A stretch of DNA of 44,531 bases from Candidatus Stercoripulliclostridium sp. GTDB taxonomy: Bacteria; Bacillota; Clostridia; Christensenellales; DTU072. The position numbers were made by a program, and so were the translations under genes. Below the pieces are notes generated by a model, which saw nothing but the letters and a program-made list of their open reading frames with translations, ran no database searches and had not been told where the DNA came from. This document shows, piece after piece, positions 1-9,490 of the stretch. The DNA is taken from the NCBI GenBank assembly GCA_045594145.1, contig JAZNYA010000069.1, positions 1 to 44,531 of the forward strand, given 5' to 3'. Position 1 is the stretch's first letter, and the number at the start of each line of letters is the position of its first letter.

Positions 1-15
1 TGCTTGCCTTTTTTA

Positions 16-47
16 ATGCAAAATGCAAAATGCAAAATGCAAAATGG
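16..47. repeat. 7-bp tandem repeat (ATGCAAA) x4 plus a partial fifth unit
   Basis: Direct reading gives atgcaaa at 16-22, 23-29, 30-36 and 37-43, then atggg. The repeat sits in non-coding sequence at the window edge. Confidence 0.9.
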
Positions 48-107
48 GCTTCGCTCCGTTACCCTTCGCTCACAAGGAAGAATATATTTATTTAAAAATC
101 CTTAAAG

Positions 108-243
108 CTCACGCAGTGAGTAGTTAACGCTTGCGTAAGCAAGTAGTTATCGCCACCGATTAGGTGGTAGTTATCGCTCCCGTAAGGGAGTAGTTAACGC
201 AAATGCGGAGCATCGCTCCGCATTTCGCTTTGGCGAAGAAAGC
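108..243. repeat. Array of consecutive perfect mini-hairpins separated by a conserved TAGTTAWCG linker; candidate structured RNA or REP/BIME-like element
   Basis: Four short hairpins: H1 108-120 ctcac/gca/gtgag, H2 130-143 cttgc/gtaa/gcaag, H3 153-167 ccacc/gatta/ggtgg, H4 177-190 ctccc/gtaa/gggag. The linker tagtta[a/t]cg occurs at 121, 144, 168 and 191 (period 23-24 nt). These are followed by an 11-bp-stem hairpin (201-225, aaatgcggagc/atc/gctccgcattt) and a 5-bp-stem hairpin (227-243, gcttt/ggcgaag/aaagc). The transcribed strand is not established. Confidence 0.6.
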
Positions 244-250
244 ACGTATT

Positions 251-278
251 AAAATAAAAAACCACCCAATAGGGTGGT
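251..278 (-). terminator. Rho-independent terminator of the zinc-ribbon/acidic-tail gene
   Basis: The minus strand reads ACCACCC-TATT-GGGTGGT followed by TTTTTTATTTT, about 26 nt downstream of the stop at 305-307. Confidence 0.8.
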
Positions 279-304
279 CTTCGTTTATTAAGTTGTTTTG
301 TGTT

Positions 305-9126: not shown

Positions 9127-9131
9127 ACAAC

Positions 9132-9448
9132 GTATTTTGGCGAAAACCATAGAAAAGCAAAAAAATCCTTCGGTCGTTTACTTCTAGTAAAGTCCCTTCA
9201 GTATTTTTCCACTTTCCGTCGGTTGTTCATCCAAACTCCGCTGTCTATCCGGCTGTGGTGGTATTTTGGCGACCTACTTAGGAAAGAAGAAAAACCAGCT
9301 CAGTCATTTACGGGGAGTCAAACTCCTGTCGTGAATTTTTTCCTTCGTCTTTCATCTAAAAATCGTGGTTTAATAGAGAAAAGATAGAAAGAAAATATTT
9401 CATCCAAATTCCGCTGTCTATCCGGCTGTGGTGGTGGTATTTTGGCGA
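9132..9448. repeat. Degenerate direct-repeat structure containing two near-identical roughly 47-nt copies
   Basis: - Copy 1 (9226-9272): ttcatccaaaCtccgctgtctatccggctgtggtggtattttggcga.
- Copy 2 (9399-9448): identical except C>T and an extra GGT.
- GTATTTTGGCGA occurs three times (9132, 9261, 9437).
- The flanks are more weakly similar. Confidence 0.85.
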
Positions 9449-9490
9449 AGTTTAAAAATTTCTACGGAAAAGCCAATGATAAATTTTCTA

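Follow-up and report, generated by a model that had tools for sequence, protein, structure and literature searches.

The hairpin array at the locus

The subject of this study is an array of small hairpins at the left end of a 44,531-nucleotide stretch of DNA (contig JAZNYA010000069.1, referred to throughout as the window) from Candidatus Stercoripulliclostridium sp. The window is an ordinary piece of Clostridial chromosome whose genes include those for spore germination, glycosidases and transporters; it holds no tRNA, tmRNA or rRNA gene, and a Pfam scan of its 30 open reading frames (ORFs) found no transposase, cas or Nop-domain gene. The array sits between the terminators of two convergent genes. 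An earlier reading of the letters alone, the original prediction, had described it as four different, perfectly complementary 5-bp hairpins with TAGTTAWCG linkers at 121, 144, 168 and 191, and this description is accurate. What we add to it is the larger structure: the array supplies the apex and arm of a more extensive foldback, one that takes in the AATGCAA heptamers at 15-46 and has relatives with a gene for an Avd-like protein. The features of positions 1-282 are listed below, with L numbers as the labels of loci retrieved for comparison.

1-14: 3' half of a terminator-like hairpin of the A-run/hairpin/T-run type (TGCTTGCC TTTTTT), which marks the repeat's outer border and is truncated where the window begins
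15-49, plus strand: left heptamer arm, (AATGCAA)x4 and the variant AATGGGC (Tandem Repeats Finder)
47-80, plus strand: arm module of about 35 nt, GGCTTCGCTCCGTTACCCTTCGCTCACAAGGAAG, with 88-94% identity to L002, L008 and L010
81-98, plus strand: A+T-rich spacer AATATATTTATTTAAAAA, kept in L002, L008 and L010
99-107, plus strand: degenerate linker 0, TCCTTAAAG (TCCTTAACG in sister copies)
108-120, plus strand: hairpin H1, CTCAC-gca-GTGAG
121-129, plus strand: linker 1, TAGTTAACG
130-143, plus strand: hairpin H2, CTTGC-gtaa-GCAAG
144-152, plus strand: linker 2, TAGTTATCG
153-167, plus strand: hairpin H3, CCACC-gatta-GGTGG
168-176, plus strand: linker 3, TAGTTATCG
177-190, plus strand: hairpin H4, CTCCC-gtaa-GGGAG (loop gtta in six sister copies)
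191-199, plus strand: linker 4, TAGTTAACG
201-225, plus strand: 11-bp hairpin AAATGCGGAGC-atc-GCTCCGCATTT, arms 100% complementary
227-243, plus strand: 5-bp hairpin GCTTT-ggcgaag-AAAGC
257-282, minus strand: intrinsic terminator of the acidic double-zinc-ribbon gene at 305-781, a neighbour outside the repeat

The linkers follow one another at 23, 24 and 23 nt, and Tandem Repeats Finder reports a period of 23 over 119-200 in addition to the period of 7, at 100% identity, across 15-46. The four linkers of the original prediction are joined by a fifth, degenerate one at 99-107 that it had missed. This linker 0 matches TAGTTAACG at 6 of 9 positions, and at 7 of 9 in its sister form; it stands before the first hairpin in every copy, including both arrays that flank the four-helix-bundle gene described below. 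When the preceding stem base is counted, every linker starts with GTAG. On the outer side of the heptamers, the hairpin GRCAAGC..GCTTGYC with its A and T runs is also found next to the heptamers of L004, L008 and L010. On the distal side, the arms of the 11-bp hairpin start or finish with the heptamer-like AAATGC or GCATTT, and the border block of this region, CAAATGCGGAGC, is common to L001 and L044, with the variant CATTTGCGGAGC in L010. The loop GGCGAAG of the last hairpin can alternatively pair with CTTCGC of the left module (64-69), as seen in the minimum-free-energy fold, and this pairing is a remnant of the missing right arm; the core 14-mer of the 35-nt module occurs only once in the window. 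The terminator hairpin that was said to adjoin the array is present as well, but it belongs to the minus-strand gene.

Such an array is far beyond chance, as had been supposed. A random 14-mer of the same composition has a 5-bp end stem with a probability of only 0.001, and four consecutive stems therefore cannot be put down to composition. A linker-first array detector, which replaced two earlier hairpin-chain detectors that called chance 4-bp stems (16 hits in 5 shuffled sets), was run on 128 kb of loci and on 10 shuffled sets; it found one array in the 44.5-kb window and none in the 10 shuffled sets of 128 kb. The array also folds far better than its shuffles on both strands, with z of -7.1 and -6.6 as RNA and of -6.4 and -6.0 as DNA.

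The original prediction of variable but compensated stems beside a constant linker is borne out by the family as a whole. Among 10 distinct family units, 98% of the cells are paired, changes are found on both sides in 4 of 5 stem pairs, and double-change cells number 21 versus 6.3 in shuffles; when, as a control, the 3' partners are shifted by 1 to 3 columns, pairing is 48% or less. End stems of at least 4 bp are present in all 14 distinct inter-linker segments of the TAGTTAWCG family, and end stems of at least 3 bp in 29 of the 34 segments of a second family with the linker RTGAAAT. A count across 51 segments gives 239 Watson-Crick pairs, 1 G-T and 4 A-C pairs, with G-T used once in 247, and the wobble has no strand preference. 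Compared with long-standing selection on an RNA, this near-absence of wobble is better matched by palindromes at the DNA level, by a repeat of recent origin or by template-switch correction.

A G...A loop closed by a C-G pair is a stable arrangement in both DNA and RNA mini-hairpins. Most loops on the TAGTTAWCG strand are of this type (GCA, GTAA, GATTA, GTTA, GAA and GTA), and because of this bias one strand seems to matter. The original prediction had taken the two GTAA loops, which are GNRA tetraloops, to imply transcription of the plus strand. This argument weakens because the second of them reads GTTA in the six sister copies, and GNRA is thus not conserved; what is kept is confined to the G...A ends and the C-G pair that closes them. 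No promoter-like (sigma-70-like) site was found in 1-250 on either strand, and a weak terminator-like hairpin lies on the plus strand at 261-278. The original prediction had recognised no named RNA family in the array, and Rfam at gathering and E-value thresholds returned no credible family for it.

Dispersed copies and the complete foldback

When one genome per prokaryotic species was scanned for two linkers at the right spacing, ten loci were returned. Five of them are short contigs of a single metagenome-assembled genome (MAG), Candidatus Stercoripulliclostridium sp. JAZRAN01 (Clostridia), which has seven arrays in total. The window's stems recur at 84-97% identity in five of the seven arrays; of the remaining two, one is a variant whose stems differ and the other is incomplete. 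Several lie where a contig stops, as would be expected if the repeat disrupts assembly. The neighbours of these arrays are unrelated housekeeping genes, and the orientation of the arrays relative to them is mixed. The original prediction had held that the same unit at dozens of intergenic sites would make it an ordinary repeat in place of a dedicated RNA; dispersal of this kind is what we find, although at seven sites and not at dozens.

Searches further afield were less productive. The non-Clostridial loci of the scan (L003, L005, L006, L007 and L009) were rejected as plain tandem repeats that contain the 11-mer by chance, and so were all 31 pattern hits in JGI metagenomes, where the inspected loci had no hairpins. 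No four-helix-bundle gene was present in any of these loci or in two viral hits of the pattern scans, and blastn of window 47-250 against plasmids and phages gave no match.

Alignment of the copies reveals a constant core of about 100 nt, which runs from TCCTTAACG through the four hairpins to TAGTTAACGC. The modules around this core are put together differently from copy to copy: runs of AATGCAR heptamers, the 35-nt module (GCTTCRCTCCG...CGCTCACAAGGAAG), the A+T-rich spacer, the CAAATGCGGAGC block and the outer terminator-like hairpin. A complete gene-less copy is about 290 nt long, and in L002, L004 and L008 the 35-nt module and the heptamers are repeated in inverted form beyond the array, with a (YTGCATT)n run opposite the AATGCAR run. 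The order in such a copy is outer hairpin, AATGCAR run, 35-nt module, A+T-rich spacer, array, inverted module and inverted heptamers, with terminator-like hairpins at both outer ends; its array has five 9-nt linkers, T[AG/CC]TTAWCG, around four different perfect mini-palindromes. The fold of L002 (-130 kcal/mol, z -13.5) pairs heptamers with inverted heptamers and module with module in a foldback stem of about 60 bp, which is capped by the four hairpins. In the window copy the left arm and this apex are preserved, and of the right arm only the remnants at 201-243.

The length of about 290 nt, the inverted arms of heptamers and module, and the seven copies in one MAG are features seen in miniature inverted-repeat transposable elements (MITEs). 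BOX of Streptococcus pneumoniae, RUP and Correia are small gene-less modular repeats or MITEs of this kind; like them, the element falls in the range of 100-300 nt, is gene-less, intergenic and modular, with inverted ends and a tandem internal module. It differs from them in having no known cognate transposase and in the internal module itself, which is a hairpin plus linker with non-identical hairpins. Its gene-bearing relative encodes a four-helix-bundle protein without known transposase activity.

Two further repeats were noticed. At 4534-4606 of L004 there is another hairpin-linker array, with the linker CGCAATKATG and the stems TCGC, ACTGC, TTTGC and TTCCC. A TAGTTAWCG-type array in the opposite orientation lies 200 nt from it, and the two flank a large palindrome of the 35-nt module. 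The window has, at 9130-9450 on its minus strand, some 2.5 tandem copies of another dispersed repeat, GTTTGGATGA...TCGCCAAAATA, which measures about 105 nt. It has internal complementary segments and no Rfam match, and its kin are found beside hairpin arrays or the four-helix-bundle gene in L004, L008, L010, L044 and L045.

The sites that correspond to the window's locus in relatives are empty. In L055 and L056 the acidic protein is 70% identical and the giant gene is again its neighbour on one side, while the spacer to the next convergent gene measures 82 nt and contains one terminator and no array; L057 and L058, where the acidic protein is 74% identical, are also without it. Absence from close relatives, together with the lack of a transcript on either strand, had been named in the original prediction as a refuting result; at the syntenic site of these four loci the array is absent. 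At 70-74% protein identity the empty sites at hand are too diverged for defining the ends of the element. The homologues of the acidic zinc-ribbon gene (70-74% identity) are mostly on short contigs. Its 158-aa product, encoded at 305-781 on the minus strand, has an N-terminal double zinc ribbon (below the Pfam cut-off) and an extremely acidic, D/E-rich C-terminal half; an exact look-up of this protein found none on record. Farther along, positions 1000-1215, upstream of a 1946-aa ORF without a Pfam family, hold many short and inverted repeats of the CGTGC/GCACG type, ending ...ACGCGCACGCTTGCGATTTTATTATATAATATGCTATCATC. In L059 a close counterpart of this region stands before the downstream large ORF, of which 568 aa are called and which the end of the contig truncates. 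No homology links the 1946-aa protein to the giant neighbour proteins of L044 and L045.

Inverted arrays around PF05635 genes

Two arrays in inverted orientation enclose a 114-aa ORF in L008 and also in L044, which is an independent assembly. On the upstream side stands the array of the window, 19 nt 5' of the ATG; the downstream array follows a terminator and has the same linkers with other stems (CCCAATGC, CAAGTCC, CTCCC and CTCTGC). The protein (P0001) belongs to PF05635, "23S_rRNA_IVP" (Pfam E 2.9e-25), and to TIGR02436, "four helix bundle protein" (E 2.6e-29), and its relatives in the PDB, 2RLD and 2GSC, have five chains each. The public gene call of P0001 (132 aa) starts at an upstream TTG, and its first 18 residues (MLTQALTTHCVSVKELRA; L044 4266-4319, L008 2508-2561) are translated hairpin array; homologues begin at the ATG.

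The relatives of this protein gave 5436 hits, mostly on contigs of less than 2 kb. Contexts were retrieved for five further proteins and for two viral loci, the only two that a scan of viral contigs for the protein returned. All nine distinct Clostridial or viral genes in this selected sample have different mini-hairpins and a constant short linker within about 300 nt. L045 has the same layout with the linker TAATTATCG and one hairpin reverse-complemented on both sides, while the linker RTGAAAT, with its inverse ATTTCAY, is found in L047, L049, L060, L061, L062 and L063. L049 has two genes, one of them truncated and accompanied by the linker YATATCAT. The linker-first detector found no arrays elsewhere in these loci or in control loci (128 kb).

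Read by eye, the RTGAAAT cassettes appear to lie just after tRNA genes and a terminator in L047 (5600-6000), L049 (4300-4700), L060 (1090-1300) and L062 (2700-2800), and just after a tmRNA gene and a terminator in L063 (2350-2800). Directly after the four-helix-bundle genes, or overlapping their stop, are ORFs of 181 aa (L047 6345-6890) and 111 aa (L049 5280-5615) with no Pfam or NCBIfam family, which may be partner genes.

Beyond the Clostridia, tblastn against plasmids found the gene in 31 records. Ten of these loci were examined (L073-L082); they come from Spirochaetota, Bacillota, Bacteroidota and Cyanobacteriota, namely from Treponema, Monoglobus, Bernardetia and seven cyanobacteria. In each of the ten the ORF has period-7 tandem repeats upstream and their reverse complement downstream. 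The heptamer arrays are beside the start and stop codons, abutting the stop in the clearest cases, and the heptamer differs from locus to locus, as in (AATTCGC)4 ... (TTGCGAA)4 of Nostoc punctiforme, (TTAGTGA)14 of Bernardetia and (CTGGTCA)13 of Euhalothece. Lag-7 autocorrelation is 0.64-1.0 on both flanks versus at most 0.64 at other lags, and the upstream and downstream flanks share inverted repeats of 16-39 nt. The heptamer of Treponema, RTGAAAG, is close to the Clostridial linker RTGAAAT, and the Treponema gene is the top plasmid match in tblastn (52% identity). In view of these plasmid flanks, the hairpin-linker arrays look like heptamer arrays with interspersed hairpins. In one plasmid locus, L074 (Monoglobus pectinilyticus NZ_OY725736.1, 1201-1545), the four-helix-bundle ORF is unannotated and separates hsdS from hsdR in a type I restriction-modification operon.

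Taken together, all 19 gene copies of the PF05635 family that were examined adjoin, or lie between, inverted arrays of short tandem repeats. Cyanobacterial tandem heptamer repeats (STRR), with small hairpin-forming dispersed repeats inserted in them, were reportedly described by Elhai et al. (2008, Genome Res 18:1484). The likeness is in the period-7 arrays and in the tiny hairpins within heptamer runs, and cyanobacterial PF05635 genes are flanked by such heptamers; the phylum and the sequences are different.

A gene of this protein family is also carried by the intervening sequence (IVS) in the 23S rRNA gene of Coxiella, which is regarded as selfish; RNase III cuts its 28-bp stem of terminal inverted repeats, and its ORF is preceded by three tandem heptamers (PMC4990558). 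The 23S rRNA IVS of Coxiella and Leptospira and the present element are alike in the S23p/PF05635 protein, which is found here in sister copies, in terminal inverted repeats that form a long stem, and in tandem heptamers by the ORF (GACAGAT x3 in Coxiella, AATGCAA x4 in the window). Such a long-stemmed pair of repeats is present in L002 and in 10 of the 10 plasmid cassettes; what the window copy has of it is the left arm and the remnants at 201-243. The differences are that our element lies not in helix 25 or 45 of a 23S rRNA gene, where the IVS sit, but between protein-coding genes or, in relatives, apparently after tRNA or tmRNA genes, that the window copy has no ORF, and that the arms hold a second type of repeat, with units parted by different mini-hairpins. 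Because the Coxiella IVS and the plasmid loci share tandem heptamers, we take the heptamers of the window as the ancestral feature of the arms; the hairpin-linker array is a lineage-specific elaboration. The literature that was searched mentions heptamers for Coxiella alone and contains nothing on PF05635 genes with hairpin-linker arrays next to them.

The competing readings and what the array means

The comparisons show a dispersed foldback repeat that is related to four-helix-bundle cassettes. On balance we think it probable, with a good deal of room for doubt, that positions 1-243 of the window hold a small foldback repeat in truncated form and without its gene, that copies of it are scattered in the genomes of Stercoripulliclostridium-like gut Clostridia, and that this repeat belongs to the family of intervening-sequence-type selfish cassettes that carry PF05635/TIGR02436 genes. 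The window copy is classed as a gene-less derivative because the ORF is absent from the window and present in its sisters L008 and L044. At this locus it probably has no dedicated cellular role beyond that of structure between two convergent genes.

A mechanism can be proposed for the cassettes along the following lines. The repeated linker would be the sequence-specific part, recognised several times per arm on unpaired DNA or RNA, and the encoded, presumably pentameric Avd-like protein is the candidate for reading it. The palindromes would act as spacers of free sequence, whose local folding fixes the distance from one linker to the next, and stems that differ from each other would avoid a long perfect direct repeat. 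In diversity-generating retroelements (DGRs), the pentameric Avd binds a short tetraloop-capped stem-loop, which contacts all five protomers with flipped-out bases in the crevices between them, and such a stem-loop is present in 207 of 278 DGRs (bioRxiv 10.1101/2023.10.23.563531). Our element resembles the DGRs in having short stem-loops with a stable small loop beside a gene of the Avd/PF05635 superfamily. It differs in having no reverse transcriptase, template repeat or variable repeat, in having four or five hairpins of 5-8 bp versus one stem of 9-11 bp, and in that its constant part is the linker between the hairpins.

Several points weigh against the reading as a truncated cassette and against its mechanism. 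In DGRs it is the stem-loop that Avd contacts, not a single-stranded linker. The window itself has no four-helix-bundle (PF05635) gene by tblastn or Pfam, and it starts inside the element. No target-site duplication, precise ends or transposase were found, and mobility is inferred from distribution only. The copy number comes from one fragmented MAG, JAZRAN01, and not from the source genome, and the nine-of-nine count of Clostridial and viral genes is a biased sample, the Clostridial loci having been chosen among relatives of one protein (51-61% identity). The hairpins themselves point in two directions, since the bias toward G...A loops on one strand argues that one strand matters, and the near-absence of G-T pairs speaks against a long history of selection as RNA. 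Perfect stems could also be maintained by template-switch correction of quasi-palindromes, with no selection on structure.

An alternative that we regard as unlikely is a structural element at the RNA level with no specific binder; when transcription runs in from either neighbour, it would form a block of stem plus hairpins that terminates or insulates transcription, blocks exonucleases or is cut by RNase III. The location between two terminators of convergent genes and the terminator-like hairpins at both ends of complete copies would suit it; the foldback stem of about 60 bp is long enough for RNase III, and intervening sequences with the same protein family are substrates of that enzyme (PMC4990558). 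It leaves unexplained, however, why a constant 9-nt linker should accompany drifting stems and why G-U pairs are not used, and the window copy has no long duplex because its right arm is lost.

REPs and BIMEs, the palindromic repeats and repeat mosaics of Proteobacteria, offer another comparison. A repeat of this type would be moved by a REP-associated tyrosine transposase (RAYT) acting on GTAG-led palindromes in single-stranded DNA. A REP is a single conserved, imperfect palindrome of 20-40 nt with GTAG or GTGG at its 5' foot, repeated across a genome in which inverted REPs flank the RAYT gene. GTAG is the conserved tetranucleotide at the foot of the REPs of E. coli, and the same four letters arise here at every linker when the preceding stem base is included. 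As with REPs, BIMEs and REPINs, the repeat is extragenic, palindromic and multi-copy, it lies in the window between convergent genes, where REPs are often found, and its mosaic of modules with constant linkers between palindromes recalls the BIMEs; stems of Watson-Crick pairs alone would also suit single-stranded DNA. The likeness ends at the palindrome, which is conserved in REPs; here 4 of the 5 stem positions vary among the four palindromes of one array, and it is the linker that stays the same. The units are direct and not alternating, GTAG stands 6 nt before the next hairpin and overlaps the 3' foot of the previous one, and neither a RAYT nor any other Y1 transposase was seen among the ORFs scanned with Pfam (30 in the window, together with those of the MAG and of the relative loci). 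We therefore hold this reading to be improbable. Of the four roles put forward in the original prediction, a REP/BIME-like cluster nevertheless comes closest, even though the conserved palindrome by which REPs are defined is not there.

The role that the original prediction had placed first, a dedicated small RNA of the sponge type, has fared poorly. Such an RNA would be transcribed from the plus strand and titrate an RNA-binding protein through four or five single-stranded UAGUUAWCG motifs held between hairpins. The constant linker and compensated stems, the G...A loops closed by C-G on the plus strand, the weak plus-strand terminator-like hairpin at 261-278 and the strong fold (z -7.1) all agree with it. 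Nevertheless, 1-250 has no promoter-like site on either strand, the syntenic site of relatives is without the array, and the same array occurs in seven unrelated contexts, in both orientations, within one MAG. There is no Rfam match, G-T pairs are almost absent, and GNRA loops are not kept in sister copies. The sponge RNA is, on this evidence, quite improbable. A sponge of the Csr/Rsm type in particular was rejected for want of a promoter, an Rfam match and conservation at the locus. Also rejected was the RNA of a type III toxin-antitoxin system (ToxI-like), in which near-identical tandem repeats of about 34-45 nt stand directly upstream of a ToxN-family gene; the period here is 23-24 nt, the units are non-identical, and the neighbour is a convergent acidic zinc-ribbon protein and not a member of the ToxN family.

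It is very improbable, in our judgement, that the array works as double-stranded DNA, in the manner of iterons or operators, with a protein on direct TAGTTAWCG repeats about two helical turns apart. The spacing of 23-24 bp is right for this, there are four or five direct copies per arm that are inverted between arms like the multi-site ends of transposons, and the RTGAAAT arrays, as read by eye, lie upstream of the gene's own -10 element. Binding to a duplex, however, gives no reason for perfect palindromes as spacers or for the G...A loop bias of one strand, and among family members the spacing ranges from 16 to 27 bp and tracks the length of the stem.

That the array encodes guide RNAs, whether as in TIGR (tandem interspaced guide RNA) systems or as in CRISPR, is almost certainly the wrong answer and was ruled out by anatomy: short constant segments do alternate regularly with variable ones, the stem-loop segments of TIGR arrays are likewise "variable but consistently palindromic" (PMC12045711) and 23S_rRNA_IVP genes have been reported in cas loci (PMC3936711), but the variable parts here pair with themselves, which excludes a guide role, loops of 3-5 nt have no room for the two 8-12-nt spacers, box C/D motifs or large loops of a TIGR unit, the period is 23-24 nt versus 36 nt for the processed tigRNA unit, and the 30 window ORFs include no Nop-domain gene such as Tas and no cas gene. 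As a CRISPR array it would have a repeat of 9-11 nt and 13-15-nt palindromes for spacers, where CRISPR repeats measure about 23-50 nt and their spacers are of similar size and non-palindromic.

Returning to the cassette reading, we would like to put forward a broader and decidedly tentative proposal, one that we regard as doubtful. In this proposal, stand-alone PF05635 pentamers recognise the repeat arrays that flank their own genes, and a single cross-phylum family of foldback selfish cassettes embraces the ORF-bearing 23S rRNA IVS as well as gene-less derivatives. The arrays of that family would be plain inverted heptamers in Cyanobacteria, Bacteroidota and Spirochaetes, and hairpin-interspersed linkers in gut Clostridia. 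By our reading by eye, several members have four full repeats and one variant per arm (window 15-49 and 99-199, and the Nostoc loci), a count that could reflect one repeat per protomer; we give it little weight because other arms hold 13 to about 40 repeats.

For this locus the outcome is a deflationary one: what looked like a new regulatory RNA gene is read as a fragment of a repeat element. It is also of practical concern, as hairpin-linker arrays break short-read assemblies and mislead gene callers. For the protein family the consequences may be wider. The PF05635 gene has attracted notice only where it interrupts rRNA genes or cas operons as a curious insertion (PMC4990558, PMC3936711), and its product, the "23S rRNA intervening-sequence protein", is without known role outside DGRs. 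The flanking arrays provide a candidate ligand for this protein, and with it a testable model of the element.

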